Position numbers and translations under genes: made by a program. From contig NC_057718.1 of NCBI RefSeq assembly GCF_004010195.1, forward strand, positions 6,926,898 through 6,946,897: a stretch of DNA of 20,000 nt, given 5' to 3'. Positions within the stretch are counted from its first letter, which is position 1. Each line of letters begins with the position of its first letter. The DNA comes from Chiloscyllium plagiosum. Taxonomy: Eukaryota. Below, one piece after another: positions 701 through 20,000 of the stretch. Under the pieces are notes generated by a model. The model worked only from the letters and a program-made list of their open reading frames with translations, was not told the DNA's origin and made no database searches.

Positions 701-779
701 TGCTCCTGAGAGCGTAGGTTTATTCTTAGATTTACTTCTAAATTTCATACATCATTACACTTACATGAATAAGATACAT

Positions 780-1250: not shown

Positions 1251-1325
1251 ACCAGAATAGTGCAGATGCTGGACTTCCATAACAGAGAACAGCAAATCCT
1301 GTCAACAGCTCAGGTTGACTCTGTG
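1251..1325 (+). CDS. Candidate internal exon of unnamed host gene (TRIVQMLDFHNREQQILSTAQVDSV)
   Basis: Acceptor tgcttttggatctAG, donor GTgagg, 75 nt open in phase 0-0, in non-repetitive sequence. Its phase link to the next candidate exon is unresolved. Confidence 0.35.
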
Positions 1326-1639
1326 GTGAGGGCACAGTAATAGGTTTCACCTTCTGTCAGTCGCTCTCGCCAAAGGGTCCACACTTGCATCTTTAACCCC
1401 TCTGCCCTCTCCACCCAAGTTGCCTGACCTACTAAGTGTTTCAGTTAATTAACAGTTTTAATTTATTATCAGAGGCTCGTTGGAGTAAATGTAAGTTTAC
1501 AGCATTTCCACTGGAAATGCAAATTTTTGACAAAAGACCAGATGGGGGCAGGGAAGGATAGTGTTGTTTGTTGTTATCTGGAATATACTACCTGAATGAG
1601 AACAGATTCAATGATAAATTTCTAAAAGACATTTGATGT

Positions 1640-2097
1640 GGGGCGTGATGGTTCAGTGGTGCTACCACTAGATGACTAACCCAGAGACTCAACTAAAAAG
1701 GGACCTGTCTTTGAATCCTGCCATAGTAGATGGTGGAATTTGAATTCAAATTTGAAAAACATCTCAAATTAAGAATCTACTAATGGCCATAAACTCATTG
1801 CTGATGTCTGTCTCACTCATGTCCTTCAGGGAAAGAAATCTACTGTGCTCACCTGGCCTGGCCTACAAGTGACTCCAGACCCAGAGCAATGTGGTTGACT
1901 CTAAATTGCCTTCCGAAATGGTTGGGCAATTTGTACCAATTGCTACAAAGTTTCATTGTGAATCAAACCTATAGCAGGTGGACTGCAGCGGTTCAAGAAG
2001 GCAGCTCATCACCACCTTCTCAAGGGCAACTAGGGAGGGGCAATAAATGCCAGGCCAGTCAGAGACATCCACTTCCCACAAAATGAATTTTAAAAAT
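1640..2097 (+). mobile_element. SacSINE1-like tRNA-derived Deu-SINE with LINE-derived tail
   Basis: tRNA-like head (gggcgtgatggttcagtggt...gaatcctgccatag), Deu-type core (atgtccttcagggaaagaaatctactgtgctcacctggcctggcctacaagtgactccagaccc) and tail (ggactgcagcggttcaagaaggcagctc...caataaatgc). Confidence 0.85.
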
Positions 2098-2111
2098 TGA
2101 TGAATTCAATG

Positions 2112-2255
2112 AAACTGCCATCATTACCCAGTCCTGCCTCCATGTGTCTCAGAGCCACAACAATGTGGTTGACTCTCAATTGTCCTCTGGACAATTCAGG
2201 ATGGACAATAAATGATGGCCTAACCAGAGGTACCCACGTCCTGCGAACAAATATA
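2112..2255 (+). mobile_element. 5'-truncated SacSINE1-like fragment
   Basis: aaactgccatcattacccagtcctgcctccatgtgtctcagagccacaacaatgtggttgactctcaattgtcctctg repeats the core and tail of the adjacent copy. Confidence 0.75.
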
Positions 2256-2319
2256 ATCTATGAATTATCAAGGAATTGAGGCTAAATCTAGACTTTGATA
2301 AAGAACAGTGCAATGGGAC

Positions 2320-2635
2320 AGTGGCTTGAAAGATGGGCCAAGTGGTCTTCTTCTGTGGGAGGGCCTAAAAGTGATCACCATCTTGGGATAAGTGATTTAG
2401 GACTGAGATGAGGAAAAATAACTTCTCTCTAAGAAGCACTGGAATTTTCTGCACCAACAAATTGTAGATTTAAGAGCAAGGTCATTTGATTTTGGTCAGT
2501 CAGGACGTAGGAAATATGGAATGGGTATAAGGTGGGAAAGTGGGGTAAAAGAATCAGACCAGCCATGATTTTCTTGAATGGTGGAACAGGATAAAAGTGT
2601 TGTGTGCTTTCTTCTACTCCTGGTTCTTATGTAAG
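2320..2635 (+). mobile_element. Old CR1 LINE 3' fragments
   Basis: gatttaggactgagatgaggaaaaataacttctctc and atcagaccagccatgattttcttgaatggtggaacagg...tctactcctggttcttatgt are CR1 ORF2-end and 3' UTR motifs. Confidence 0.7.
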
Positions 2636-2740
2636 ACTGTTTGAAAATCCCCTGGGATATGAGCAGCACTGTGATATTGCACACAATATCATCTGCCCAG
2701 CTCCATTCACACCATTCCAAATATACCCTGTTGTGATCAG

Positions 2741-2799
2741 GGAACTTAAGCAACTCATGTCTAATGAAGCAACTGCTGTGGCATGGAGGACAAAAGAAG
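2741..2799 (+). CDS. Candidate internal exon of unnamed host gene (ELKQLMSNEATAVAWRTKE)
   Basis: Acceptor ccctgttgtgatcAG, donor AAG|GTgacc, phase 2-1, unique sequence, helical protein-like peptide. Confidence 0.45.
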
Positions 2800-2892
2800 G
2801 TGACCCCAAATATTTCACTTTTATCTGCTCAGTGGTAGGTTTAGGAATTGCGACAAAGGAGCATGAATCCAGAGGCAGTCCTGCTGTCCTTG

Positions 2893-3400
2893 TTTGATTT
2901 GATATGATTTGATTTATTATTGTCACATGTACCTAAGTACAGTGAAAAGTATTGCTTTACGTGCAGTACAGGCAGATCATACCATACAAAGTGTATGAGG
3001 GTCATAGAACAGAGCGAGGAATACAATGTTGTGGCTGCAGAGAAGGTGCACAGAGAGCAAGATCAACATTAAATTTACACTTTGGGAGGTTCATTCAGAA
3101 GCTTAATAACAGCAGGGAGGAAGCTGTTCTTGAATCTGTTGGTGCATGTTTTCAAATATCTGGATCTTTCCCAATGGAAGAGGGTGGAAGAGAGTAAACC
3201 CTGGGTGGGAGGGGTCTTTGATGATGTTGGCTGCTCACCTGAGACAGTGGGAAGTGTAGATGGAGTCAATGAATGGAAGGTCAGTTTGTGTGATGGACTG
3301 GGCTATGTTCATGACTCTCTGTAGTTTCTTGCTGTCTTAAAAAGAGCACTTGCCGTACCACACTGTGATGTGTCCGGATAGGCTGCTTTATATAGTGCAC
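2893..3400 (-). mobile_element. Rex1/Babar-clade LINE, 3' fragment
   Basis: Minus-strand peptide ...RYLKTCTNRFKNSFLPAVIKLLN is a Rex1-type ORF C-terminus. The 3' tail is (ATCAA)n, seen as tttgatttgatatgatttgattt on the + strand. Confidence 0.85.
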
Positions 3401-3524
3401 CATAGAATGATCAGATTATACTGGGCAGGTGACAAAACCTGGTGGTGCTGCTGTCTGTAGTCAGCACGTGTTTCCCATCCTCTATTACCTTTCAACTGAG
3501 AGATTTTCTCTTCCACTTCACTGG

Positions 3525-3783
3525 GTAGTTAAGAATAAGCTGCCTTGCTGTTGGTCTGGAGTCACATGTAGGCCAGACCAGGTATGAACAGTAGGGTTTC
3601 CTTCCCTAATATCAGTGAGCTTGTTAGGTCAAGTGCTGGTACTGTTTCACAGTCACCATCACTGAGGCTACATCCCAATTCCAGGTTGTATTCATTGGTT
3701 TTAAATGCTGCCATGGCTTGTATCCACAGAGGCATTATCCTGGGATTCTGGATGACTAGTCCACTAAGCCTTCAACTCCTCCC
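3525..3783 (-). mobile_element. SacSINE1-like Deu-SINE, degenerate
   Basis: ggtctggagtcacatgtaggccagaccaggta...ttccttccctaa is the reverse complement of the Deu core; a head-like sequence lies at 3740-3783. Confidence 0.75.
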
Positions 3784-4219
3784 TGAACAGAAGCTGATAA
3801 CTTGGCCGAGGAGAGAGTTATGAATGAATAGCATGCAGAAGCTGGTCAGATGCCCTCCACCCTACCAGCTGTTGCCCCTTTCCCTTCTACGCATCAGTTC
3901 TGGCATTAATTCAATTGCAACTGACCTGCCTCCCAACTCCATCTATCTTTCTTAGTTTAATCAGTCACCATGAAATCTTTCCCCAGGAAAAGTCTATTGA
4001 CCTCCATCTTTCAAATTTCAACTCCAACCCCGACTCTTTTTTGGGAAACAGTATCTGACTTACTTCATGTTTAACCATGGGTCTGATTGAAAATTGCAAA
4101 AATCTTCTCTGTCTTGCTTTTTCTCTCCAATGTCTCCCTTACCTCTCTTCCCCCACTTTCTCTCTTCCTTGAATTCTTCTAACTTCTCCTCTCTTCCCAA
4201 TTTCTTTTCCTTTCCCTAG

Positions 4220-4247
4220 GCAAGAGTTAAAATAGATCCAGAACATA
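4220..4247 (+). CDS. Candidate 28-nt microexon (ARVKIDPEH)
   Basis: Follows a ~110-nt polypyrimidine tract ending tttccctAG. Donor is GTaagc. Only the phase 0-1 frame is open, which fits the phase-1 start at 5384. Confidence 0.5.
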
Positions 4248-4267
4248 GTAAGCTAAAAATATAACAT

Positions 4268-4890
4268 GGGGAGGCGATGGCACAGTGATGTTATCATTGG
4301 GCTGTTAATCCAGAGACCCAGGTTCAGCTCCTGCCATGGCAGATGTTGGAATTTGAATTCAATAAACATCTGGAATTAGGAGTCTGCTGATGACCCTGAG
4401 TCAATTGTCAGAAAAACTCATCTAGGTCACTAATGTCCTTTAGGGAAGGAAACTGCCATCCTTGCCTGGCCTGGCCTACATGTGACTCCAGACCCACAGC
4501 AATGGGGTTGCACAGTGGCTTAGTGGTTAGCACTGCTGCCTCACAGCACCAGGGACCTGGGTTCAGTTCTTACCTGGGGCAACTGTCTGTGTGGAGTTTG
4601 CACATTCTCCCTGTATCTGCGTGGGTTTCTTCTGGTTTCCTCCCACAGTCCAAAGATATGCAGGTTAGGTGAATTGGCCATGTTAGATTGCCCGTAGTGT
4701 TAGGTGCACTAGTCAGGGGTAAAATGTAGGGGAATGGGTCTGGGTGGGTTGCTCTTCAGAGGGTCGGTGTCGACTGGTTGGGTCGAAGGGCCTGTTTCCA
4801 CACTCTTGGCAATCTAATCTAATCTAAACTGCCTGCTGGGTAATAAATGCTGACCTAGCCCAAGAAGTCCACATCCCCTGAATGATTAAA
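4268..4890 (+). mobile_element. SacSINE1-like Deu-SINE interrupted by an HE1 SINE
   Basis: Head gggaggcgatggcacagtgatg and Deu core run to cccacagcaatg (4504). The tail resumes at about 4827 (aactgcctgctgggtaataaatgctgacctagcc...cacatcccctgaatgattaaaa). Confidence 0.88.
4505..4826 (+). mobile_element. HE1 SINE (V-SINE), near full length
   Basis: tRNA head cacagtggcttagtggttagcactgctgcctcacagc, V-domain gtgtggagtttgcacattctccctgtatctgcgtgggtttc, HER1-like tail gaagggcctgtttccacact, then (AATCT)n. Confidence 0.93.
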
Positions 4891-5383
4891 AGACAATAAT
4901 CCCCCACAACCTGACAAACCCTCAGATCTGGCGATGAAAGTGTCAATGTCAGGTCAGTTTCACAAAAAAACAGTGATTATTGTGTGGAGAGATTATAGCC
5001 AATGTACAGGAAGGAACTGCCAGAAAGTCAAAAATGATTGCAGTGAGACAGAAACCAAACCTGAAAGGAAAAACAGAATTACAAGGAGACACTAAATATG
5101 ATTCATTCCCTCTGAATTTCTAAGCTACTTGTTTTGATTGCAAATTAAACTTTGAAAAACCCACCTACAATTTATGGAAAGATGTTTTGCTTGGATCTGA
5201 AATTTTTTTTGGATCTAAATATGAATTGAAAATATTTTATTGAGTTATTTTGCAAGGCTTAAATCCTTTGTTTGAATCCAACCTCATTTGGGAAAGTACT
5301 TGAATGGAAAAGATTGACGAAGAATGTGGAAAGCATTGGGTTTAATGAAAGTGCTGCTATTTTGAGGTGGGATTTCTTTGCAG

Positions 5384-5454
5384 AGTGGAAGAATTTTAAT
5401 GGGATGTTGTTTAACAAATCAAAGAAGTGGAAATATTTGACTGTGGAGGAGGAG
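5384..5454 (+). CDS. Candidate internal exon (WKNFNGMLFNKSKKWKYLTVEEE)
   Basis: Acceptor gatttctttgcAG, donor GAG|GTtagt, 71 nt. Only the phase 1-0 frame is open. Confidence 0.55.
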
Positions 5455-5500
5455 GTTAGTAAATGTTACACTTGAACAAGAAATCCTCACTGGAACAATG

Positions 5501-5696
5501 TTGAAAAGTGTGGTGCTGGAAAAACACAGCAGGCCAAGCAGCATCCGAGGAGCAGGAGAATCGACGTTTCGGGCATAAGCTCCTCGGATGCTAAATACAT
5601 CGATTCTCCTGCTCCTCGGATGCTGCTTGGCCTGCTGTGTTTTTCCAGCACCACACTTTTCAACTCTGGTCTCCAGCATCTGCAGTCCTCACTTTC
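5501..5696. mobile_element. Penelope-derived fold-back mini-element with target-site duplication
   Basis: Inverted arms ttgaaaagtgtggtgctggaaaaacacagcaggccaagcagcatccgaggagcaggagaatcga and its reverse complement. Flanked by tcctcactgga(a/t)caatg at 5484-5500 and 5697-5713. Confidence 0.85.
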
Positions 5697-5713
5697 TCCT
5701 CACTGGATCAATG

Positions 5714-6056
5714 ACAGAGTGGATGTTGGGAAGATGTTTCTACTGGTGGGAGAGACTAGGACCCGAGGACACAGCCTTAGAATAAAGGGAAGACCTTTCA
5801 GAACAGAGATAAGGAGAAACTTCTTCAGCCAGAGAGCAATGGATCTATGGAATTCATTGCCACAGAAGGCTGTGGAGGCCAGGTTATTGAGAAATTTTCA
5901 GATGGAGGTAGATAGGTTCTTGATTGTAAAGGGTATCAAGTGTTACAGGGAGAAAGCAGGAGAATGGGGTTGAGAAGCTTATCTGCCATGATTGAATGGC
6001 AGAGCAGACTTGATGGACCGAGTGGCATAATTTCTGCTCTTATGTCTTATGGTCTT
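5714..6056 (+). mobile_element. CR1 LINE 3' fragment
   Basis: Peptide DRVDVGKMFLLVGETRTRGHSLRIKGRPFRTEIRRNFFSQRAMDLWNSLPQKAVEA, followed by a CR1 3' UTR. Confidence 0.92.
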
Positions 6057-6424
6057 GTCTTATAAGGAAGTGCATTGGACCAGTTGTTATGTGAATGAGT
6101 TGCACAGGAGAGAAAGTTGGGTTGATTGACATTTGAAATTTCATTGAGTCAAGGACTTTAACGCTGACCCCACGAGGTCACAGAGAGGTCAACATTCCTG
6201 AGCCCACCTTTCCAAAAGAGGGGTGAAGGAAACTCCAGAGGAACATCCCATAGACATTTGTTTTCAAGTTCTGCGCCAGCTCATCAAATCCCAGTGAGAT
6301 TCTTTTACTTAGGGCCTTAAGATAGATTTTGGAATTCTTTAAGAAACTGGAACTTGAAAGAGCAAAATGCTGAGGCAATTGGAAAAATATCTTGGAATTT
6401 CCTCCCTGAGGACATTGTGGATCT

Positions 6425-6707
6425 ACCTACAGTGTGGAAGCAGGCCATTCGGCCCATCATGACCACATCAATCCTCCAAACAGCCACCCTGCCTACCCAA
6501 TCCCTGTAACCCCATGTCTTCCACTGTCAATCCACTTAACCTGCACATCGTTGGACGGTGGGTGAAAGTTGGAGCACCAGGAGGAAACCCACGTGGATAG
6601 AGAGAGAATGCGCAAACTCCACACAGTGGGTCGCCCGAGGCTAGAATCAAACTCAGTCCCTGGCGCTGTGAGGTAGCAGTGTTAACCACTGAGCCACCAT
6701 ACCACCC
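6425..6707 (-). mobile_element. HE1 SINE nested in a LINE family B tail (about 6395-6810)
   Basis: Reverse complement of the HE1 head and V-domain (gcaaactccacacag...ctgtgaggtagcagtgttaaccactgagccacc). The flanks join into ggaatttcctccctgaggacattgtggatctacc|...cagcagttcaagaaggcagc. Confidence 0.88.
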
Positions 6708-7155
6708 TGCATGTGAAGGCCAGCAGTTCAAGAAGGCAGCTTACCACCACTAGGGATGGGCAATAAACGCTGGCCCAGCCAGTGACGCACACATCCCATA
6801 AGTGAGTAAAACATAAGCTCTAAATGATTCTTCTGACAGGAAAGACAGAATCTTAATTTAAAATCAATTCAGAAGGGCACCTTAGTGCTCTCTCTGTAAT
6901 GCAAATATGTCAGCTTAGGTTAGATGTGATTAAATATCTGTGGTGGGGCTTGAATGAAGGTTTATTGGAGATGGGTTGTGTAAAAGGCACTGGATTCAAT
7001 CAGCCACATTGTTATTGAATGGTGGGGCAGGCTCGATGGACTAAATGGCCTACTTCTGTTCCTACATTCCAGTGAACCCATAACCTTTTATTGTTGATAT
7101 ACTAATGCAACCCATTGAACCAGCCGCCATCACATGTCAACTCATTTTCATACAG

Positions 7156-7182
7156 CATCTTCACTGTGGAAACCATCACAAG
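7156..7182 (+). CDS. Candidate 27-nt microexon (IFTVETIT)
   Basis: Acceptor ctcattttcatacAG, donor AAG|GTatct. The phase 2-2 reading joins in frame with the exon at 8770. Confidence 0.45.
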
Positions 7183-7247
7183 GTATCTCACATTGGGGGA
7201 GGAAGAGGACAGATGAAGGGTCGCTTGACTCAAAAAGACCAGAAGGG

Positions 7248-8376
7248 CATAAGATGTAGGAACAGAATTAAGTCATTCAGATCATCCAACTTGCCCCACC
7301 ATTCAATCATGGCTGACATATTTCTCAATCCCATTCTCCTGCCTTTTCCTCGTAATGCTTAATCCCTTCACTAATCAAGAATCTACCTATCTCTGTCTTA
7401 AACACACTCAAAGATTTTGCCTCTTCGGTCTTCTATGGTATTTGAGTTCCATGGAATCTCTTGCTGAAGAAATCCCTCCTCATCTCAAGGGTTTTAAAGG
7501 GTTATCCTTCACTCTGAGGCTGTTCCCTTGGGTTCCAGTCTCTTCTACCATACAGTGATAGAGTCATAGAGATGTAAAGCACGGAAACAGACCCTTCAGT
7601 CTAACTTGTCCATGACGACCAGATATCTCAACCCAATCTAGTCCCACCTGCCAGCACCCAGCCCATATCCCTCTAAACCCTTCCTATTCATATACCCATT
7701 CAGATGCCTTTTAAATATTGCAATTGTACTAGCCTCCACCACTTCCTCTGGCAGCGCATTCCATACACGTACCACCCTCTGTGTGAAAAGGTTGCCCCTT
7801 GGGTCTCTTTTATATCTTTCCCTCTCACCCTAAACCTGTGCCCCAGTACTGGACTCCCCCACCCCAGGGAAAATACCTTGTCTATTTACCCTATCCATGT
7901 CCCTCATTATTTTATAAACCTCTATAAGTCCACCCCTCTGCCTCCGATGCTCCAGGAAAAACATCCCTAGCCTATTCAACCTCTTCTTACAGCTCAAATC
8001 TTCGAACCCTGGCAACATCCTTGCAAATCTTTTCTGAACCCTTTCAAGTTTCACAACATCTTTCCAATAGAAAGGAGACCAGAATTGCACGCAATATTCC
8101 AACAGTGGCCTCACCAATGTCCTGTGCAGCCGCAACATGACCTCCCAACTCCTGTACTCAATACTCTGACCAATAAAGGAAAGCATACCAAACGCCTTCT
8201 TCACTATCCTATCTACCTGTGATTCTCTGTGTCCACAATATCCAGGCCCTTTCAGTATTCTGTAAGTTTTAATCAGATCCCACTCATCCTTCTGAACTCC
8301 GAGTACAGACCCAGAATCCTTAACTGCTCCTCATGAGAAGCCCTTCATCTCTGGGATCACTCTTGTAAACTCCTCT
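7248..8376 (-). mobile_element. Older CR1 LINE 3' fragment (7248-7552 and 8222-8376) split by a younger CR1
   Basis: CR1 3' UTR reverse complement (cattcaatcatggctgacatatttctcaatccc) and ORF2 end. It continues after 8222 (ctttcagtattctgtaagttttaatcagatccc). Confidence 0.8.
7556..8221 (-). mobile_element. CR1/HER1 LINE 3' fragment (younger)
   Basis: ORF 7830-8204 (-) reads KKAFGMLSFIGQSIEYRSWEVMLRLHRTLVRPLLEYCVQFWSP...LIEVYKIM, followed by the tail ctctatgactctatc. Confidence 0.95.
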
Positions 8377-8434
8377 GGTTTTCTTGTCCCAATTCTTTCT
8401 TTGAAGCCTTCTAGGTTTTTCTGACTTTTCCCAC

Positions 8435-8492
8435 AGAGAGAGAGAGAGAGAAAGGGTGGTGGGAACAGAGAGGGAGAGAGAGAAAGAGAGAG
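8435..8492. repeat. Interrupted (GA)n microsatellite
   Basis: agagagagagagagagaaa...gagagggagagagagaaagagagaga. Confidence 0.9.
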
Positions 8493-8769
8493 ATGCTTTC
8501 TGTCTGCAGTCTCTGGATATATCTTCTCTTCAACTGCTCTTGGAAGATAAAACTTTTTAATGTTCTGCAGCTCAAATAATCAGAGCACTGCTAATAGGTG
8601 GAATTTCTTTAAATCAAGATTTTCAGCACTGCTCAATCTCAAAATCTCTTTCTTACTTTTACAAAAAAGCAATGTTTTATCAAATAGCATATTAAGCACT
8701 TGTTTCTTTTAAATTATAAAACTCTCCTGATCAAAAATTTCAAATCATGCAACCTAGCTTCCATTTCAG

Positions 8770-8826
8770 TTTATGGTACCACAACAGAAACTATGATGTC
8801 TTTTACGTCATTAATACTGCTTCCAG
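8770..8826 (+). CDS. Candidate internal exon (LWYHNRNYDVFYVINTAS)
   Basis: Acceptor cttccatttcAG, donor CAG|GTtaag, 57 nt, phase 2-2, open. Confidence 0.6.
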
Positions 8827-8849
8827 GTTAAGCAAATCCAGCTCACATG

Positions 8850-9160
8850 GTCAAGCTCACATAACTACTGCCACTTAGAAGGATAAGGTAACAAATACAT
8901 AGGAATGCCACCTCATGCAAGTTCCCCTCCAAGCCACTCACCATCCTGACTTGGAAATATATCACCGTTCCTTCAGTGTCACAGGGTCAAAATCCTGAAA
9001 TTCCCTCCTGAACATCATTCTGGGTCACCTCCAGCACATGGACTGCAGTCGTTCAAGAAGGCAGCTCACTACCACCTTCTCAAAGGGTAACTAGGGACGG
9101 GCAATAAATGCTGGCCCAGGCAGCGATGCCCACATTTGTGAATAGATATTAAATAAAATA
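8850..9160 (+). mobile_element. CR1-group LINE family B 3' end
   Basis: gcaagttcccctccaagccactcaccatcctgacttggaaatatatcaccgttccttcagtg...ggactgcagtcgttcaagaaggcagctc...caataaatgctggccc. Confidence 0.88.
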
Positions 9161-9204
9161 CTTTTTATTATTATTCACAAGTTTCTATTAATCACTGGAC
9201 AAAC

Positions 9205-9478
9205 CTGTGTGGAGTTTGTACCTTGTCCCTGTGTCTGCGTGAGTTTCCTCCGGGTGCTCCAGTTGCCTCCCACAGTCCAAAGATGTGCAGGTCAGGGTGG
9301 ATGGGCTGTGGGAAATTGCCCATAGTGTTCAAAGATGTAGAGGCTGGGTGGTTTGGCCATGGGGAATGCAAGGTTTCAGGGATGGGATCCGGGAGTGGGT
9401 CAGGGTGGGATGCTCTTCAGAAGTTGGTCTGGATTCAATGGGCCAATGGCCTGCTTTCACAGTGTAAGGATTCTATGA
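9205..9478 (+). mobile_element. 5'-truncated HE1 SINE
   Basis: V-domain ctgtgtggagtttgtaccttgtccctgtgtctgcgtgagtttcctccgggtgctcc and tail ggccaatggcctgctttcacagtgtaaggattctatg. Confidence 0.88.
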
Positions 9479-9634
9479 ATTGGTGCAACTCCTACAAAAC
9501 TTTTTGAATGTATGCTTCCATATTTTCAACACATTTTATAGTAAATAAAAAATGTTCCTTACTGCTATTGCACAATATGGTGAAAGAAATTAAGACCAAA
9601 AGATGCGAAGCACCCTGAAAGAGATCTGAGAGAC

Positions 9635-9665
<31 letters not shown>

Positions 9666-9678
9666 GGGGTGGGGGGGG
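9635..9678. repeat. (TG)n microsatellite followed by G-runs
   Basis: tgtgtg...tgtga gggggg t gggggggg. Confidence 0.95.
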
Positions 9679-9895
9679 TTAAGAGCCAGAACATAGAGAC
9701 TGTGCTGATATCTAAGCATTGGACAGGAGACAGGATTTCCGATCTGTGCTCTGATTGCCACATTTCTCAATCGCCGTGTTTGACTCAGTTATTCCCTTTC
9801 TTATTTGACCTCATCCTGACCTCTCCAAAAGGTGGGATGAGGCCCAAGCTCAGAGAAGGGGCAACAAAGCAACATTTAGTGTTTAACTATTTCAG

Positions 9896-10000
9896 GAAGA
9901 GCCTTGAGAATGCACAGAGGAGGCTGCTCAGGAACATAGTGCGGGGAAGCATTGAGTTGGCAGATTCAAGAGAAAACCTGATGGATATTTGGCAGAACAA
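9896..10000 (+). CDS. Candidate internal exon (KSLENAQRRLLRNIVRGSIELADSRENLMDIWQN)
   Basis: Acceptor tttaactatttcAG, donor AA|GTgcgt, 105 nt. Only the phase 2-2 frame is open; it lies within ORF 9636-10103. Confidence 0.65.
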
Positions 10001-10209
10001 GTGCGTAAGAGCTACGGTAGCTTATAGTAATTTTCAAACTTTGAGATTGACCAGATGCAACGGCAACTGTCTCATCTCCTTTCACAGGATTCCTTTGCTT
10101 TAAGTTCCCCCAGTCCTGCCTCTGCTGATGAAATTCTGTCCGGCCTAGCTGCCAGGGCAGGTCATGGCCAAAGGCACAAAGGGAGAGAAGTGACCAAATT
10201 GTCAAAGTT

Positions 10210-10330
10210 CACAAAAACTGAAAGAATTGTGGATGCTGTAAATCAGACAGAAAATAAAAATTGCTGGAAATGCTCAGCAGGTCTGAAAGCATCTGTGGAG
10301 AGAAATCAGAGGTAACCCTTCCTCAGAACC
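10210..10330 (-). mobile_element. Old Penelope-like terminal fragment (another family), internally deleted
   Basis: gatgctgtaaatcag...attgctggaaatgctcagcaggtctgaaagcatctgtggagagaaa...cccttcctcagaac. The reverse complement retains a partial hammerhead-like CTGAGGAAGGG. Confidence 0.6.
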
Positions 10331-10470
10331 CCAATTGTTAATGGTCACGACGGGAGACTCATTGAAAAGCTATGGGAAGGTGGGTCTCCTTGACTTTTGA
10401 CATGGTGGCAGTAATCTGTGAGAAGGGTATAGAAAGGTGAGAGGTCATATTCTGATGCCATCCAGTTAGC

Positions 10471-10806
10471 GTCGGTGACAGTGGTTCAATGGTTAGCATT
10501 GCTGCCCCACAATGCTTGGGACCCGGGTTCGAGTCCAGCCTTGGGCGACTGACTGTGTGGAGTTTGTATATTCTCCCCGTGTCTGCGTGGGTTTCCTCCG
10601 GATGTTCCGGTTACTTCCCACAGTCCAACGATGTGCAAATTAGGTGGATTGGCCATGCTAAATTGCCCATAGTGTCCAGGGATGCACAGGCTAAATGGAA
10701 TAGCCATGGGAAGTTACAGGGTAGGGGTGTGGTTCTAGATGGGATGTTCTTTGGAGGGTTGATGTGGACTCCAATGGCCTGCTTCTACGCTTTAGGGATT
10801 CTATTC
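10471..10806 (+). mobile_element. HE1 SINE
   Basis: Head with A/B boxes (gtggttcaatggttagc; gggttcgagtcc), V-domain and tail tagggattctatt. Confidence 0.92.
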
Positions 10807-11023
10807 CGTCTATTGTCTAAAAGGCACCACCAGCACACAAAAGGTTGTGACAACTCCTTTGGAGACACATAAGGGGCAGTGTGGTTGGAGGTCTGCTGGC
10901 CTGTGAAACAATGGGATGTTTACAGGAAGGAGGGGAAAATCTCACACAGAGTTTTCTCTCCCCAAGTCAAATAATATTTGACTCGAAGAGAAAAGGTGAA
11001 AGTCATTGTTTAACCATTTTCAG

Positions 11024-11089
11024 GATATTGTCAGGACGCCAGGAAAATGTTTGGCTGTTGCAGTTGGATGAGAATTCCTCACAGGAGAA
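11024..11089 (+). CDS. Candidate internal exon (ILSGRQENVWLLQLDENSSQE)
   Basis: Acceptor ttaaccattttcAG, donor AA|GTgaga, 66 nt, phase 2-2, in frame with the exon at 9896. Confidence 0.62.
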
Positions 11090-11173
11090 GTGAGAATAGA
11101 GTGCATTGATCAGTTCTGATGTGAGTAAGTGCCATAGGGGAGGAAATGGGCTCTTAAACTTGATTGACATCAG

Positions 11174-11396
11174 AGGTTGTGCTCAGCTGAGTGAAGACTT
11201 CAACACTGAGGCCACAAGGTCACCATTGGAAAGCCGGTCCAGAAAAACCAGGACATCTATATCGCCAGACAGGCACACGGTTCCACCTCAACGTCTGGGA
11301 ATTCCATTGAGCAGTCAGTCCCTGCCCCCTTCCACAATGATGATGAATGAGAGGAAATGTGAAAGAAGAATTGGACTCGGATATGTAGATTTTTAA
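11174..11396 (+). CDS. Candidate terminal coding exon (GCAQLSEDF...RRIGLGYVDF*)
   Basis: Acceptor gattgacatcAG (weak pyrimidine tract) after an 84-nt intron. Phase-2 start gives 73 open codons to TAA; S/P/R-rich, probably disordered tail. Confidence 0.5.
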
Positions 11397-11869
11397 ACAC
11401 ATTTGGGAATCTGGGATTGGAGTATCTCGGAGAATGACATCCCCATATGCTTGAAAACTATGCATTATCCTAGTGCCCTTAAAACCCAGCCAGCAGGAAC
11501 AAAGATACAAGGAGAAGGGACTCCAACCTTTGGGTAAATCTCTGGATTTTGCATGACTGATGTCTGTAATGGCTCAACAATCTATTTAACTCATATCGCT
11601 CCATGCCACTGCCTCTAGATTTGAAGGAGTGCAGTGGTCACAGTCCCATGATGTCTGGTTTTGGAGGCAAGACTGGGTGTTGTCTTTGAGGCCCCTGTTT
11701 TGCAGAGACGGCTTCCCCCTCTGGTAACGGGGATGCGCCGTCTTCATGCCCCCAACTCTACCTCTCAACCATATCTTCTGATTCGACCTGTGAGTCACAA
11801 AAACCTCCTCCCTGTAATGCATTGAAAATTCTGCATTGTGCATTCTGTCCATTTACAGTCAGGAGATGA

Positions 11870-12025
11870 GGGCACAAAGACGGTTTGTGGGGGAAGAGCA
11901 GAGGTTGGCCCATTGAGTCTGCATCGCCACTCAGTGAGATCATCAGTTGGTCACCCTCAATTCCACTTTTCTGCTTTATCCCCACGACCCTGGATCCCCT
12001 GACCGATTAAAAAACCTGTCTTGAA
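11870..12025 (-). mobile_element. Old CR1 3' UTR fragment
   Basis: ggcccattgagtctgcatcgccactcagtgagatcat...ccctcaattccactttt...atccccacgaccctggatcccctgaccgattaaaaaacctgtc. Confidence 0.65.
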
Positions 12026-12323
12026 TCGACCTCACCTCTGTTGTTAGCCAACTGAAAGAATGGCCCCCAGTGATGAAATACCATTTCAGCTGGTGTCTCC
12101 AAATGTGAGATGATGGACGCACCCCTGTATGAAAGGTCTCAGTCGCCCAAAGGGGAGAGGCGGGAATGGAGACTGAGCACAGGGAGAACAGTCGAGTAAA
12201 GGCTGCAAAATATCAGCCGCCATGCAACTAAGACGGATGTGTGGACAGGTAATGGAATGTGTAATGCTAGTGGCAATGTCTGTGGCTGGTGAGTGCTGTC
12301 AGTCTGGAACATTCTGAGGTTCA

Positions 12324-12375
12324 TCAAACTCCAACTATGTGACCCATGGCAACCAGACGTCCATCGGTGTGTCCC
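12324..12375 (-). CDS. Possible terminal exon of a convergent gene (GHTDGRLVAMGHIVGV*)
   Basis: Minus-strand acceptor gttgtgtgcttgccAG, then G GGA CAC ACC GAT GGA CGT CTG GTT GCC ATG GGT CAC ATA GTT GGA GTT TGA, in unique sequence. No upstream exon is securely linked. Confidence 0.3.
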
Positions 12376-12529
12376 CTGGCAAGCACACAACAATCTCACT
12401 GTATCAGATTCCCATGGCTTTGGACATGCAGCAACAGAGTATCGGATCTAAACTGGGAGGGACTCTTCATATGGAAAAGAAGGAAGCTTGAATAATAGAT
12501 TATCTATCTAAATAAATCCCCTTGCCTGG

Positions 12530-12950
12530 GTGAGTCAGCCTCAACAACACTCAAGCATGATCCAAGACAAAGCAACCACTTGATTGGCACCACATCCACA
12601 AACATTCACATCCTCCACCATCGACACTGAGTGGCAGCAGGTTGTGCACTGCATCTGCTCACTAAAACTCTCCCAACAGCACCTTTCAAACCCATGGCCA
12701 CTCCATCTGGAAGGACAAGGGCAGCAGCTACATTGGAACACCACCCCCTGGAAGCTCCCCTCCAAGCCACTCGCCATTCTGACTTGGAAATATATCGCTG
12801 TTCCTTCAGTGCCACGGGGTCACAATCCTGGAACTCCCTCCCTAAAAGCACTGTGGACATATCAAGCACCAAATGCTTCAAGAAGGTAATTCATCGAGGA
12901 ATGGGCATTAAATACTGGCCCAGCCAATGAAGTCTGCATCTCATGAATTA
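12530..12950 (+). mobile_element. CR1-group LINE family B 3' fragment
   Basis: Peptide ...RHSDLEIYRCSFSATGSQSWNSLPKSTVD, a LINE ORF2 C-terminal WNSLP motif, with the same tail as 8850-9160. Confidence 0.85.
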
Positions 12951-12954
12951 GTCT

Positions 12955-13238
12955 GCATTCACTACAGTATGGAAACAGGCCCTTTGGCCCAACAAGTCCA
13001 CACTGACCCTCCGAAGAGTGACCCATTCCCCTACGCTTTATTTACCCCTGACACTACAGGCAATTTAGCATGGCCAATTCACCTAACCTGCACATTTTTG
13101 GAATGTGGGAAGGAGACCCACGCAGACACGGGGAGAATCTGCAAACTCCACACAGACAGTTGCCTGAGGGTGGAATTGAACCTGGGACCCTGGTGCTGTG
13201 AGGCAGCAGTGCTAACCACTGAGCCACCGTGCCGCCCC
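12955..13238 (-). mobile_element. HE1 SINE
   Basis: Reverse complement begins ggggcggcacggtggctcagtggttagcactgctgcctcacagcaccagggtcccaggttcaattcc; V-domain and tail are present. Confidence 0.93.
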
Positions 13239-13304
13239 AAAATGTCGGAATGTAAAGCTAGTTATGGTATTGCTAACCTTGAAACTCTCATCAACTGCTG
13301 TTGA

Positions 13305-13579
13305 ATCAGGCCATCTGGCCCAACAAGTCCACACTGACCCTCTGACCAGCATCCCACCCAGACCCACCGCACTACCCTATCCCTGCATTTCCCACGGCTA
13401 ATCCACCCAGCTTGCACATCCCTGGACTGTGGGAGGAAACTGGAGCACCTGGCGGAAACCCACACAGACGCGGGGAGAATGTGCGAACTCCATACAGACA
13501 GTCACCCAAGGTTGGAATTGAACTCAGGTCCCTGGAGCTGTGAGGTAGCAGTGCTAACAACTGAGCCATCATGCCACCC
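13305..13579 (-). mobile_element. HE1 SINE
   Basis: Same head, V-domain and tail in reverse complement, adjacent to the previous copy. Confidence 0.9.
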
Positions 13580-13609
13580 AAATTGTTGGAGGTTCACTAA
13601 ACTAGGCAA

Positions 13610-13953
13610 GTCTTGCTGCAGTGGAAAGACTGCCAACATCATCAAAGAGCCCTCCCATCCCGGAATGCTCTCCTACAACTGCTTCCATGAGGCAGAAGAT
13701 ACAGAAGCTTGAACACACGCACCAACAGGTTCAGGAGCAGCTTCTTCCCCACTGTTATTAGACTGCTGAGTGGACCTCTCTAACTTCAAATGATGTGGAT
13801 CTTGCTTTGTGCACCTCTTGTATGCCTCACTCTGTCTAAGCACCCTGTGATCTGTATGCCCTTGCTTACCATGATCTGCCTGTACTGCTCACAAAACAAA
13901 ACTTTTCACTGTGCTTAAGTACATGTGACTACAATAAATCAAATCAAATCAAA
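13610..13953 (+). mobile_element. Rex1/Babar-clade LINE 3' fragment
   Basis: Peptide KTANIIKEPSHPG...RRYRSLNTRTNRFRSSFFPTVIRLL (frameshifted) and tail caataaatcaaatcaaatcaaa; same family as 2893-3400. Confidence 0.88.
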
Positions 13954-14054
13954 GTGAGAATATTCCATAACACTTTGACTTACGTCTTGTCAATGGTGGA
14001 CAGTCTTTTGGAGTCATTTGCTCTTCGATGACTCTGGCACCATTAGTACACTGT

Positions 14055-14260
14055 TGAGCGTCAAACACATTGGCGTGGGACTGGAGTCAGAGGTAGGTTT
14101 AAACTAAGTGACGTTGGCCAATTTCCTTTCCTGACTCACATTAGTGAACAAGTTGAGTTTTCAGAATAAACTAACAGCTCACATTTACTGTTGTGAATAT
14201 TTTATTTCCCCACTTTGTAAATTGAAGTTAATTTCTAAAATTGGCCATGGTGAGATTTAC
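14055..14260 (-). mobile_element. Degenerate SacSINE1-like fragment
   Basis: cacattggcgtgggactggagtcagaggtagg...tttcctttcctgactcacattagtgaac is the reverse complement of the Deu core. Confidence 0.6.
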
Positions 14261-14290
14261 TCTCATATTTGTCAGGATTATCCTCACATT

Positions 14291-14380
14291 CCTGATGAAG
14301 GGCTTTTGCCCGAAATGTTGATTTTCCTGGCTCCTCGGATGCTGCCTGACCTGCTGTGCTTTTCCAGCACCATTCTAATT
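14291..14380 (+). mobile_element. 90-bp Penelope-terminus insert beginning at the hammerhead core, 13-bp TSD
   Basis: cctgatgaagggcttttgcccgaaatgttg...gcttttccagcacc, flanked by ttatcctcacatt at 14278-14290 and 14381-14393. Confidence 0.85.
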
Positions 14381-14534
14381 TTATCCTCACATTTGCCAGA
14401 TTGCCAGTCCAGTGTTCGAACCCTAACCCTCCCACATCATATATAGGTCACATAGCTTGAGATATTTTCTAGTCAGTTGATTTCTCCAATATTGCCATCT
14501 ATAAATTTATTTTCCAAGCTTCTTCTCACCATAG

Positions 14535-14644
14535 TAGAAAGGGAGGACTGCAGATGCTGGAGATCAGAGTCGAGAGTGTGGTGCTGGAAAAGCACGGATG
14601 CTGGCTGACCTGCTGTGCTTTTCCAGCACCACACTCTCGACTCT
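14535..14644. mobile_element. Penelope-derived fold-back mini-element with imperfect TSD
   Basis: Arms agagtcgagagtgtggtgctggaaaagcac and gtgcttttccagcaccacactctcgactct. Flanks tcttctcaccatag (14521-14534) and tcctctcaccacag (14645-14658). Confidence 0.8.
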
Positions 14645-14739
14645 TCCTCTCACCACAGGCAGCTTTTCTTTATGCCAACCCTGTCAACCCATTTCCCTGT
14701 ATACCTTTCTTCAAATGGCAAAGTAAAAGGTCACAATCA

Positions 14740-15609
14740 TCAAGCCCATACGATATAGGAGCAGAGTTAAGAGTGTGGTGCTGGAAAAGCATAGCAGGTC
14801 AGGCAGCATCCGAGGAGCAGGAGAGTCGACATTTCGGACAAACAACCCTTGAATCAGGCCATTGGCCCATTTAAAATGCTCTGCCATTCAATCATGGCTG
14901 ATAGGTTTCACTACCTCATTCTCCCGCCTTCTCCCTGTACCTCTTGAACCCCTCATGCATCAAGAAACTATGTCTTAAAAATCAAAGGTCTTATTTGCAC
15001 ACAATAAATTGACCTCCACAGCCATCCGTGCCAATGTGTTCCACAGATTCACCACCATCTGGCTGAAGAAATGCCTCCTCATCTCAGTTTAAAACAGTTG
15101 TCCTTTCAATCTGAGGCTGTTCCCTCGGGTCCTGGTCTCTCCTTCGAGTGAAAATGTCTTCTTGCACATCCACTCTCTCCAGGTCTCTCAGCATTCTGTA
15201 AGTTTCAATCTGGTCTCCCCCTCATCCTTTTAAACTCTACCGAATGCAAACCCAGAGTCCTCAACTATTCCTCATATGACAAGCCCTTCTTCCTGGGATC
15301 TTTCTTGCATCTTCTGTTCTGGACTCCTCCCCACGCGCATGCATCCTTTCTTAGATATAGGGCCAAAAACGACTCACAATGTTCCAAATGCAGCTTCAGC
15401 AGTAGATCCCTGCTCTTGTATTCTAGCTCTCTTGAAATGAATGTGAACATGGATTTGCCTTCCTAACTGCCAGCTGAACCTGCATGGTAAGAGAATCCTG
15501 ATTAGGACTCTCAATTTCCTTTTTGCTTCAGATTTCTGAAGCCTTTCCTCATTTAGAATGTAGTGAATGCCTCTATTCTCCCCATCAAAGTGCATAACCT
15601 CACACTTCC
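14740..15609 (-). mobile_element. CR1 LINE 3' fragment with a Penelope-terminus insert at about 14763-14850
   Basis: Minus-strand peptides KCEVMHFDGENRG..YILNEERLQKSEAKR and FISRELEYKSRDLLL...LEHCESF, then a CR1 3' UTR. Confidence 0.88.
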
Positions 15610-16436
15610 ATAAGAATAAAACATAAGAACATAGGAACTGGGAGCAGGAGTAGGCCGTCTGGCCCCTTGAGCCGACTTCGCCATTCAATAAGATCATGGC
15701 TGACCTTTTCATGGCCTCAGCTCCAATTACCTACCATCTCACCATAACCCCTCATTCCTTTACGGTTCAAAAATCCATCTATCTTAGTTTTAAAATCACT
15801 TACTGAGGAAGCCTCAACTGCTCCCCTGGGCAGGGAATTCCACAGATTCACAACTCTGGGTGAAGAAGTTCCTTCTCAATTCTGTCCTAAATCTGCTCCC
15901 CCTAATTTTGAGGCTATAGCCTCTTGTCCTAGTTTCACCTGCCAGTGGAAATAGCCTCTCTACTTCTATCTTATCTATAGTCCCAGTCTAGTCAGTCTCT
16001 CCCCATAAGCTAAACCCCTCAACTCCAGAATCAATGTCGTGAACCCCCTTTGCACCCCCTCCAGTGCCAGCACGTTCTTTCTCAAGTAAGGAGACCAAAC
16101 CTGTACACAGTAATCCAGGTGAGGCCTCACCAGCACCTGTACAGCTGCAACGTAACCTCCCTGCTTTTAAACTCAATCTCTTCAGCAATGAACCGCAAAA
16201 TTCTATTTGCCTGCTTAATTACCTGTTTTCCCTGCAGACCAACATTCTGTGATTCATGCACAAGGACACCCAGGTCCCTCTGCACCGCAGCATGCTGCAA
16301 TTTATTACCATTTGACTAATTGTCCTTTTTACTGTCATTCTTACTAAAATAGATAACTTCACATTTATTAACATTGTCCTCCATCTGCCAGACCTATGCC
16401 CACTCACTTAAACTATCTCTGTCCCTTTGCAAAGTT
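15610..16436 (-). mobile_element. CR1 LINE 3' fragment inserted into the preceding CR1
   Basis: Frameshifted CR1 ORF2 remnants plus tail ttcctatgttcttatg. The host CR1 resumes at about 16437 (ctcacattgtattcc). Confidence 0.88.
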
Positions 16437-16590
16437 TCTCACATTGTATTCCAACAAGTCACAAATGGAGAGAATTCTGACTAACATTGGCCTTTATTTA
16501 ATGGCAGACTCTTATCATGTGCAGAGTCAAGATCAGAGTGGTGCTGGAAAAGCACAGCAGTTCAGGCAGCGTCTGAGCAGCAGTACAATC

Positions 16591-16618
16591 GACGTTTCGG
16601 GCAAAAGCCCTTCATCAG
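16591..16618 (-). ncRNA. Minimal type I hammerhead ribozyme motif (antisense copy)
   Basis: Reverse complement is CTGATGA-A-GGGC-TTTT-GCCC-GAAA-CGTC. Confidence 0.7.
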
Positions 16619-16651
16619 GAATACAGGCAGAGAGGCTCTCTGCCTTTATTC

Positions 16652-16679
16652 CTGATGAAGGGCTTTTGCCCGAAACGTC
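16652..16679 (+). ncRNA. Minimal type I hammerhead ribozyme motif
   Basis: CTGATGA-A-GGGC-TTTT-GCCC-GAAA-CGTC: both conserved core boxes, a 4-bp stem II, a palindromic ACGT stem III and a GUC cleavage triplet. Confidence 0.72.
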
Positions 16680-17459
16680 GATTTTACTGCTCCTCGGATG
16701 CTGCCTGAACTGCTGTGCTTTTCCAGCACCACTCTGATCTAGACTCTGGTTTCCAGCATCTGCAGTCATTGTTTTTACCTCTTATCATGTGCAGTAGAGC
16801 CATGTGAGAGCCCATGAATTATTTTAATAGACAACAGTACTATCTTGTCATGTTTGATGAGCATTGGCATTTATTTGTTCTGCAGTTTTATAAACAGGCT
16901 GTAATTTCATTCTCCCTTTTGAAGTAAGTCAAGTTTGCGCATTGGCAGGGAATTATACTATGCGCTGAGACTCGTCCTGCGAACAGTTTTGTGGGCAGAT
17001 TGTTCCAGTATTTATGACTAAGAGCAGCACAAGGAAACTAAATGGTTGAGATGAAGAATGAACTCAGAAAAATGCTTGGGATAGTGGAGTTCATCAGACG
17101 GTCAATCGAAAGATTTCGGATGATCTCAGTCCCTAAGGCAGGAGATAATGTTTTATTTTGTATTTTGAAGATCACTTTAATAGTGTACTTTCCTTAAAGT
17201 GTTAGAAGAAATGTCCTGTAAAGAGCCAACAAATTCACTTTTCCACACGTGTTCAACCCTATCCGCTAACAGGAAGAATGAAGGTGATTTGTCCATCTAT
17301 CAGGATTCGCATCCTGCCCACATTAAGCTAACTTCCAGAATCAGGTCTTTTGAACCAAGCTTCTATTGCCATTGTTTTAAGATAGCAGAACCTTCAGCCA
17401 ACAGTTTAACAATGTCGCCTTCATCTCAGAGGACATTTTCTGAAGGAACCCCTGTCTTA

Positions 17460-18685
17460 TAAAGGGATGTTGAGTAGGTTGGACCTGGACTCATTTGGAG
17501 TTTTGAAGAATGAAGGGAGACCTTACTGAAACTTACAAAATTCGATGAGAACTTGACAGAGTAAATGTAGAAAGGTTGTCTCCCGTGTGGAAGAGTATAG
17601 GACGAGAGGGAAGTGGGTACTGCAGATGCTGCAGATCAGAGCCAAGATTAGAGTGGTGCTGGAAAAGCACAACAGGTCAGGCAGCATCCGAGGAGCAGGA
17701 AAAATTGACGTTTCGGGCAAAGGCCCTTCATCAGGAATAAGGCTGGAAACTTCGGGTGGGGAGAGATAAATGGGAGGGGTGGAGGGTGGGGCTGGGGAGA
17801 AGCTGAGAGTGCAGTAGATGGATGGAGGTGGGGGTAAAGGTGATAGGTCGGAGAGGAGGGTGGAGTGGATAGATTGGAAGGAAGATTGACAGGTGGGACA
17901 GGTCATGTGGACAGTACTGAGCTGGAAGATTGGAACTGAGGTAAGGTGGGGGGAGGGGAAATGAGGAAACTGGTGAAATCCACATTGATGCCATGGGGTT
18001 GAAGGGTTCCGAGATGGAAAATAAGGTGTTCTTCCTCCAGGTGTCAGGTGGTAAGGGAGTGGTGGTGGAGGAGGCCCAGGACCTGCATGTCCTCGGCAGA
18101 ATGGGAGGGAAGTTGAAATGTTCGGCCACGGGGCGGTGGAGTTGAATGGTGCAGGTGTCCCGGAGATGTTCTCTGACGCGCTCTGCGAGAAAGCGTCCAG
18201 TCTCCCCAGTGTTGAGGAGACCGCATCATCTAATTGTACTCTTGGCTACCTTCCCCCCAGCCCCACCCCCGTCCCATTTATCTCTCCACCCCCGAGGCTC
18301 CCAGCCTCATTCCTGATGAAGGGCTTTTGCCCAAAACGTCGATTTTTCCTGTTCCTCAGATGCTGCCTGACCTGTTGTGCTTTTCCAGCACCAATCTAAA
18401 TACAGGACTAGAGGATCTAATCTCTGAATGAGGGTTTACACATTTAAGATAGAGATTAGAAGGAATTTCTTGTCTCAAAGAGTAGTGAATCTGTGATTTT
18501 TTTTACCACAGAAAATTGTTGAGGCTGGGTCATTGAGTATATTCAAGTCTGAAATGGATAGCGAATCAACAGTTATGGGGGAAAGGCAGGAAATTGGAAT
18601 TGAGGTTTGTTAGATTGACCATGAACTCATTGAATGATAGAACAGATGGGCTGAATGGCCTACTTTTGCTCCTACATCTCATGGT
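17460..18685 (+). mobile_element. CR1 3' fragment (17460-17609 and 18401-18685) split by a Penelope insertion
   Basis: agaatgaagggagaccttactgaaacttacaaaatt (RMKGDLTETYKI). Resumes with tttaagatagagattagaaggaatttcttgtctcaaagagtagtgaatctgtg and a CR1 3' UTR. Confidence 0.85.
17610..18400 (-). mobile_element. 5'-truncated Penelope-like element (GIY-YIG C-terminus and 3' end) with an inverted terminal duplication (18232-18400)
   Basis: Minus-strand frameshifted peptide PVAEHFNF/PSHSAEDMQVLGLLHHHSLTT*HLEEEHLIFHLGTLQPHGINVDF is typical of the Penelope endonuclease C-terminus. Hammerhead motifs at about 17707-17734 (-) and 18313-18340 (+). Flanks tataggacgagagg and tacaggactagagg. Confidence 0.88.
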
Positions 18686-19069
18686 CTGTCATCCAGATGG
18701 GTCAAGAGGTCACCATTTGAGGGTGACAGAAGAACCAGAGGACTCAATGATGGAAGCATTTTCATGCAGCCAGTGCCCAGGATTTGGAATGCAAAACCTT
18801 AGAGGTGGATCCGTTCAGAGTTTTCTAAAGGAAACCACGCAAGTGCCTGAAGAGAAACAAATTGCGGGAATTTAGAGAGAAGAAGGAAGTGTGGAATTTA
18901 ACGAATGGGTGTTGCAGAGAGCCAACATTCACATCACTGCTTCCTGCTGTGCTGTTATCAAATCTGTAAGGAGCGTGAAAGAATCCCTCATGCTTTAGCC
19001 ATTATTTACCCCTCAGTCAACATTACTCAAGACAGTTTGTTTATTCACTTAGCACATTTTTGTTTATTT

Positions 19070-19330
19070 GTTTTCATTCATTCATTGGATGCTGGTATTG
19101 TTGGTTGAGCCAGTATTTATTTCCTTCCCCCAGTTGATTGGGAGAAGGTGATGGTGAGCTGCTATCCTAAATCAGTGATGTGGTACAGGAACACTCAAAG
19201 TGCCTTTAGGGAAGAAGGTGCAGCATTTTAACCCAAGTGACAGTCAAGGAACGGTGATACATTTCCAAGTCAGGATGTTGTTTGAATTTGCAGGAACTTG
19301 CAGCTGGTGGTTTTCCCATGCATCTGACCT
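19070..19330 (-). mobile_element. CR1-group LINE family B 3' end
   Basis: ccagtatttatttcc...gagaaggtgatggtgagctgct...aaggaacggtgatacatttccaagtcaggatg is the reverse complement of the family B tail. Confidence 0.8.
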
Positions 19331-19524
19331 CTTATGTCCTTCATTATATTTGCCTTTGTCAATTCCAGAGCATCAGTCAATGATTTACCCAGTGTCATTC
19401 CTTCCTTGAGACTTTGTAGTGATTTGATGTAACTGAATTTCTTGTGAGGTTATTTTCGAGGCCATTTAATAATCAATCATTTTGCTGTGGATTTGGAGTC
19501 TCAGGTAGGTCACATCAGATAAGG

Positions 19525-19876
19525 ATGACAAGCAGGAGGTGGGGAGAACACAGCAAGGCCAGGCAGCATCAGGAGGTGGAGAAGTCGATGTTTCAGGTGT
19601 AACCCTTCTTCAGGACTGTGGGGCGGATGTGGGGGGAGCTGCAGATAGAGGGGGTGGTGGGGGCAGGGTGGTAAATTGGGGATAGGTGAAGACAGGTAGA
19701 GGGTATGACCTGGTTGGTCAGTGGGAAGAATGAATGTGGTTCGTGGCGAGAAAAAAGGGTCAATCAGAGGAATGGAAGGGAGGTGGAGGGACTTGGAAGG
19801 GAGGTTACTTGAGATTGGAGAACTCAATGTTGAGCCCTGTAGGCTGAAGTCTGCCCAAGCAGAAGAGGAGATGTTG
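19525..19876 (-). mobile_element. Penelope-like element (second family) 3' fragment with hammerhead motif
   Basis: Minus-strand peptide LLGRLQPTGLNIEFSNLK*, pyrimidine-rich UTR and motif agtc-CTGAAGA-AGGGT-TAC-ACCT-GAAA-CATC-gact. Confidence 0.82.
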
Positions 19877-19877
19877 T

Positions 19878-20000
19878 AGAGTCGTAGAGATGTACAGCAT
19901 GGAAACAGACCCTTGGGGTGCAACTCGTCCATGCCGACCAGATATCCTCACCTAATCCAGGTCCATTTGCCAGCAGCTGGCCTATATCCCTCCAAACCCT
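19878..20000 (-). mobile_element. CR1/HER1 3' tail (runs off the window)
   Basis: agagtcgtagagatgtacagcatggaaacagaccctt...catgccgaccagatatc matches the tail at 7556. Confidence 0.88.

Follow-up and report, generated by a model that had tools for sequence, protein, structure and literature searches.

A 254-bp fold-back insert with opposed hammerhead motifs in Chiloscyllium plagiosum, very probably a by-product of Penelope-like element insertion

The DNA analysed here (the window) is a stretch of 20,000 nt from the shark Chiloscyllium plagiosum (NCBI RefSeq assembly GCF_004010195.1, contig NC_057718.1, forward-strand positions 6,926,898 to 6,946,897); coordinates below count from its first base. 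Positions 1-20000 are almost all interspersed repeats, with at least 60 direct-repeat families and 208 inverted pairs, and an unsystematic inspection showed no obvious host exon. The repeats that surround the insert described below we take, on impression, to be shark-type SINE and CR1/L2 pieces.

Two exact copies of a 16-nt target-site duplication, at 16509-16524 and 16779-16794 (+), bound an insert of 254 bp, as a preliminary description of the locus had reported. Among 2000 random site pairs at a spacing of 254 bp, one gave 16 identical letters and one gave 13, and either may be the insertion itself. The insert consists of an inverted, tail-less copy of the 3′ terminal repeat (pseudo-LTR, pLTR) of a Penelope-like element (PLE) at 16525-16634 (-; 110 nt, family positions about -16 to +94 from hammerhead position C3), a direct 5′-truncated copy of the same repeat at 16636-16745 (+; 110 nt), and a one-sided 33-nt ‘tail’ at 16746-16778 (+), of the type described in PMC8557442, PMC3846280 and PMC11167929. 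The family sequence continues 2 nt into the right duplication, to 16780, and the last 3 nt of the left duplication also extend the palindrome, a primer/template microhomology. A repeat finder gives arms of 113 nt each (16522-16634 and 16636-16748), 95% complementary with a 1-nt gap; the centre is 16635, where the preliminary description had placed it with a 1-nt loop, and within the insert 104 of 110 pairs match. The interval then proposed, 16523-16747, took in the palindrome but left out most of the tail, which is part of the element. The predicted RNA fold of the insert has an energy of -207 kcal/mol (z -26), and that of the opposite strand -203 kcal/mol.

The arms turn at 16633-16637, on a 5-nt mini-palindrome of the family's own, two pairs around the 1-nt centre at 16635. 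Upstream of 16633 other copies carry on with different letters, as seen in loose ends before 16633 and in a copy at 18294-18300.

The six mismatched pairs between the arms are 16529/16741, 16571/16699, 16574/16696, 16578/16692, 16586/16684 and 16624/16646, and the locus has drifted since insertion. Five of the six differences are changes in the inverted arm, four of them within 16 nt (16571-16624). This bias (five of five resolvable differences; two-sided binomial about 0.06, calculated by hand) is not significant and has no explanation, and the clustering of four of the six mismatches in 16 nt is not significant either (P = 0.08). Error-prone synthesis of the second arm could account for the clustered changes in the inverted arm.

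The same PLE end was found in five other insertions in the window, labelled A, B, C, D and F, with the hairpin insert as E. A (5501-5696, +) is a fold-back with a short templated filler at its turn, a tail on the direct arm, a 17-bp duplication with one mismatch and no complete hammerhead core. B (14291-14380, +) is a solo copy without tail, with an exact 13-bp duplication and a hammerhead motif altered in helix III. C (14535-14642, -) is a fold-back with a tail on the direct arm, a 16-bp duplication with two mismatches and no hammerhead. D (14772-14858, -) is a decayed solo copy, for which no convincing flanking duplication was found. F (17610-18400, -) has a 623-nt direct arm with tail, a 151-nt inverted arm and a 14-bp duplication with two mismatches. 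Duplications in the window thus span 13-17 bp. A, C, E and F are all fold-backs, and in all four only the direct arm has the tail, yet they turn at different points: counted from hammerhead C3, -16/-19 in E, +8/+24 in A, +44/+64 in C and about -57/-490 in F. In each insertion both arms share letters distinct from the other window copies, as is expected if each event drew on one source.

At the turn point of A (5581-5596) a stretch from lower down the same repeat has been copied in as filler, together with a few untemplated letters, which resembles end-joining with a templated insert. In A (5501-5696) and C (14535-14642) the tail-less arm outreaches the tailed arm on the upstream side by 16-20 nt, approximately the length of the target duplication.

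Insertion F, which shares the terminal repeat of the hairpin insert at 88-90% identity, ties the repeat to a coding element. Its direct arm holds a disrupted piece of a GIY-YIG endonuclease C-terminus (17984-18225), spread over two frames and containing one in-frame stop. When the first 40 residues were used as a HMMER query, four proteins were found at E <= 0.001 among 1.84 billion, and two of the four have Pfam PF01541 (GIY-YIG) above cut-off. Three of the four align back to 17984-18225 by tblastn, in two frames and with 43-58% identity. An Atlas search put 16 of 30 hits in a single family with PF01541 on 20% of its members, which we treat as a lead only. Pfam searches of five window frames gave nothing relevant; the F fragment itself has no Pfam hit, while its relatives do. 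A word-based homologue search of the 142-aa frame against longer proteins returned none of 405 candidates. P0001, the top HMMER hit, was set aside because it is a repetitive protein without an informative family and had no tblastn match.

Since the GIY-YIG fragment lies upstream of the repeat in F, the repeat of the hairpin insert is, on sequence evidence, the 3′ pseudo-LTR of an endonuclease-bearing PLE, and the preliminary description's view of the insert as Penelope-derived is borne out through this sister copy. Three traits of endonuclease-positive PLEs are present: the repeat is downstream of a C-terminal GIY-YIG sequence (by way of F), an inverted 5′-truncated copy adjoins at the 5′ end, and a tail, here 33 nt where 30-40 bp is usual, is found at one end only. 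The available text of PMC8557442 (Craig et al.) describes PLE insertions as highly 5′-truncated, often adjoined on the 5′ side by an inverted 5′-truncated copy, and bearing a tail of 30-40 bp at one end. None of the window copies reaches the reverse transcriptase (RT) domain, and the PLE assignment is made from the repeat and the GIY-YIG sequence. We are confident that the insert is a single 5′-truncated insertion of such an element, dead on arrival, with its palindrome a by-product of the individual insertion.

Contigs from public sequencing runs were placed on 16400-17000 (601 bases) at 85% likeness, using three DNA runs, two from organism A and one from organism B, of which about 84%, all and about 85% were read. 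The runs gave 84,725, 54,495 and 89,030 placed contigs, almost all on the insert, against a depth of 10-19 on the unique right flank; the PLE family is very abundant, although summed depth cannot be read as a count of copies. Behind about 16732 and behind 16780 loose ends accumulate, with low agreement, and mark two 3′-end classes.

Each of the three DNA runs has a single unique contig over the right flank that enters the tail by 20-21 letters (the bridging standard being 31), while neither the left junction nor the whole stretch is spanned by any listed contig, the filter leaving holes in the left flank. No empty site was found in the three DNA runs, which all appear to carry the insertion, judged on the 20-21 letters into the tail and a left flank with holes. 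The insertion is probably common to organisms A and B, whose flanks differ by five letters and one gap in 243.

Palindromes are prone to mis-assembly. It is extremely unlikely, we believe, that the palindrome here is an assembly artefact, or that it arose after insertion by replication fold-back or by two head-to-head insertions, despite the lack of a listed contig over the left junction or the whole stretch. A single exact duplication brackets both arms, as expected of the one insertion event that had been proposed; the six arm differences mean that the arms cannot be a single mirrored read; subfamily letters that the other window copies lack are common to both arms; three sister insertions have the same plan; and the right junction is present in contigs of all three DNA runs.

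The preliminary description also entertained a distinct non-autonomous, retrozyme- or MITE-like family, in which the fold-back unit would be transcribed or excised and re-inserted by PLE proteins. It named a different inversion point in every copy as the observation that would speak for a by-product, and the turn point does differ in all four window fold-backs. The same pattern appears in the runs: the 15 joints listed, of 678, all straddle the centre at different position pairs, and none is the 16635 centre. The sides of these joints are short (18-30 letters), four of the 15 stop at -4, a point at which subfamilies part from the hairpin copy, two of the 15 probably belong to a single class, and a contig with exactly the 16635 centre would not register as a joint. 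A few exact twins of this centre may exist among the genomic copies.

The insert does keep the 3′ cis end and tail, the available text of PMC3846280 finds pLTRs sufficient for mobilisation in trans, and some joints recur from one DNA run to the next (16622>16687, for instance, in 8, 2 and 10 contigs of the three). However, the recurring joints end at points of subfamily divergence, and a hairpin of -207 kcal/mol would presumably be a poor template for reverse transcription. Retrozymes, moreover, are tandem direct repeats. According to the accessible portion of bioRxiv 10.64898/2026.07.22.740005, the non-LTR retrozymes of animals resemble the insert in being non-coding, PLE-derived and endowed with a type I hammerhead, but they have at least two consecutive same-strand hammerheads, whereas this is an inverted unit with one motif per strand; its head-to-head layout does not fit a non-LTR retrozyme, a class also marked by abundant linear or circular RNA. 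The insert is likewise unlike a DNA-transposon MITE, in which inverted repeats reach both ends, the duplication has a fixed length and the copies are uniform inside: here there is a 33-nt tail outside the repeat and on one side, the duplications are of 13-17 bp and the four turn points differ. We therefore regard a mobile family as very unlikely.

Each arm carries a minimal type I hammerhead, at 16646-16684 (+, C3 at 16652) in the direct arm and at 16586-16624 (-, C3 at 16618) in the inverted arm, in agreement with the preliminary description. A 25-nt hammerhead motif matches with no mismatches at 16652-16676 (+) and 16594-16618 (-), three further near-copies lie in the window, and none of 200 shuffles gave a match. 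Both arms have the core letters, a 4-bp helix II and an extra base between 9 and 10.1 (an A in the direct arm). Helix I of the direct arm, kept in register, has two pairs, a U-U, one pair and then mismatches; two of the changes in the inverted arm add G-U pairs, for a run of two pairs, U-U, one pair, two G-U and one pair. Helix III (16675-16678, +, in the direct arm, with putative cleavage after 16679) is four self-complementary letters without a loop, whose four pairs are worth -1.7 kcal/mol. Being loop-less, it can form only between two same-strand copies. The two motifs had been called intact, which holds for the core letters and helix II but not for helix III, a loop-less 4-nt palindrome, or for helix I, which has two pairs before the U-U.

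The transcript of each strand holds one motif only, since the two lie head to head on opposite strands. In a lone arm the core box is predicted to pair with the cleavage-site strand instead, and within the full hairpin the predicted cost of forcing helix II and the core open is about 41 kcal/mol, in keeping with the earlier proposal that the hairpin would sequester the hammerhead. We take the hammerheads to be passengers of the terminal repeat: each would require a tandem partner on its own strand, neither has one, and both would be buried in the hairpin if transcribed. They presumably do not cleave.

The same minimal motif is defined in PLE repeats by Cervera and De la Pena (PMC4209133), whose available text reports that single motifs do not cleave and that dimers cleave at a low level. 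The likeness extends to the type I core boxes, the extra base between 9 and 10.1, G10.1-C11.1, the palindromic 15.2-16.2 without loop 3, and the pairing of motifs on opposite strands; dual minimal hammerheads of that kind are already reported there at 100-700 bp apart, as against 34 nt edge to edge here. The Schistosoma hammerhead has 4-5 bp in the same account, compared with a helix II of 4 bp and a helix I of only 2 bp before a mismatch here, and 2 bp are reported for Drosophila virilis. In the available part of Frangieh et al. (PMC11167929), the anole motif requires protein for cleavage, and insertion in vitro does not depend on that motif.

Rfam at E <= 1 gave 17 matches, none of them a hammerhead; matches to microRNA hairpins were all far below gathering score and result from the palindrome. 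The exact 25-nt motif had no match in metagenome contigs and none in viral contigs, and ARAGORN reported no genes.

A host might have co-opted the dead PLE stub, as a double-stranded RNA source (of endo-siRNA against the family, or as an ADAR substrate) or as a regulated ribozyme. A 110-bp hairpin is predicted to form if the locus is transcribed, the right junction is apparently present in two organisms and hence fixed or old, and the core is unchanged in both arms. Yet the divergence between arms (6/110) is about twice that of the flank to organism B, as drift predicts; the sparing of the core by all six mismatches has P = 0.16 and amounts to no excess conservation between arms; there are no compensatory pairs among the six; and the genome has very many equivalent hairpins, among which this one is not special. 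The sequence of the insert gives no sign of selection for an endo-siRNA or ADAR role. No RNA run was listed as a holder of the sequence among the indexed runs, and a poly(A) single-cell run, read to about 6% of its letters, placed no reads on the locus, which counts neither for nor against transcription. Co-option is in our judgement very improbable, and the insert is best read as neutral. We also think it unlikely, though less so, that a fixed-centre subset of copies became a self-propagating palindromic family, or that the very many 50-150-bp PLE hairpins of this genome collectively feed an siRNA/ADAR brake on the parent.

For the preferred reading, a one-time insertion by an endonuclease-bearing PLE, we infer the order of nicking and priming from the anatomy and from published work. 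The GIY-YIG nuclease would nick both target strands 16 nt apart, giving rise to the duplication. Of the two 3′ start sites of the family, reverse transcription would use the outer one, which yields the tail, with a 2-nt overlap of primer and template, and after about 146 nt it would halt a short way upstream of the hammerhead. The mirror-image arm would then fill the other side and end at the inner, tail-less start site with a 3-nt overlap. Nicking and extension of both strands, and two RT start sites that bound the tail, are reported in the available text of PMC11167929.

There are two candidate routes to the second arm. In the simplest, the 3′ end of the cDNA would fold back on the 2-bp mini-palindrome of the family and copy itself; in the alternative, the other nick would prime a second cDNA, and microhomology would join the two. 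The turn on a mini-palindrome native to the family favours fold-back self-priming for the hairpin insert, and in the portion of PMC3846280 (Arkhipova et al.) available to us junction palindromes are explained in that manner. The tail-less arms of A and C, which reach 16-20 nt further upstream, better fit double priming or a later loss at the centre; simple fold-back cannot give these offsets without later loss. For the hairpin insert we give fold-back self-priming slightly better than an even chance, and double priming slightly less than one.

The insert is an ordinary, already known by-product of PLE insertion. As far as PMC3846280 and PMC8557442 were available, the endonuclease-positive insertions they describe have the same head-to-head arms, junction palindrome, one-sided tail and target duplication, with GIY-YIG coding sequence upstream in longer copies; Figure 2 of PMC8557442 shows the anatomy of the insert, and the Pen2a example of PMC3846280 has an inverted pLTR, a 31-bp tail and a 9-bp target-site duplication. 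The rotifer examples in these excerpts have duplications of 8-10 bp, against 13-17 bp here. The hairpin insert differs from known PLE insertions in being without ORF sequence and in turning with a 1-nt centre; its candidate clades are Poseidon and Neptune. In the available account of the Anolis carolinensis Poseidon element (PMC11167929), two internal RT start sites match the end classes at about +86 to +97 and +125 to +131 here, both strands are nicked and extended, and the hammerhead is not needed for insertion; that account has no homology between primer and template, as against junction overlaps of 1-4 nt here, and leaves inverted arms unexplained. Our literature search, outside which most subscription papers fall, found no paper on the present PLE family, on shark PLE fold-backs or on a self-propagating palindromic Penelope-derived MITE.

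The single locus matters little: it is a clean textbook PLE insertion that can be used as a presence/absence marker. It also adds one example to a very large natural set of PLE junctions that could help to settle how inverted ends form, features of which are still undefined according to the accessible text of PMC8557442. Compared across the genome, the turn points, which are symmetric in the hairpin insert and shifted by 16-20 nt in two sisters, could decide between fold-back self-priming and double priming. The locus would gain in importance only if a family of copies shared this centre, or if such hairpins yielded small RNAs or editing.

Other repeats in the window include a different Penelope-like end (19535-19875, -), which has a hammerhead-like motif of its own, a helix I that looks better paired and a purine-rich upstream region. 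At 10232-10316 (-) is an older, more diverged relative of the terminal repeat, of about 72% identity and without the hammerhead part. Another repeat family occurs in opposite orientations at 2900-3400 and 13640-13955, each copy with a short tandem tail of 5-nt units at its end.
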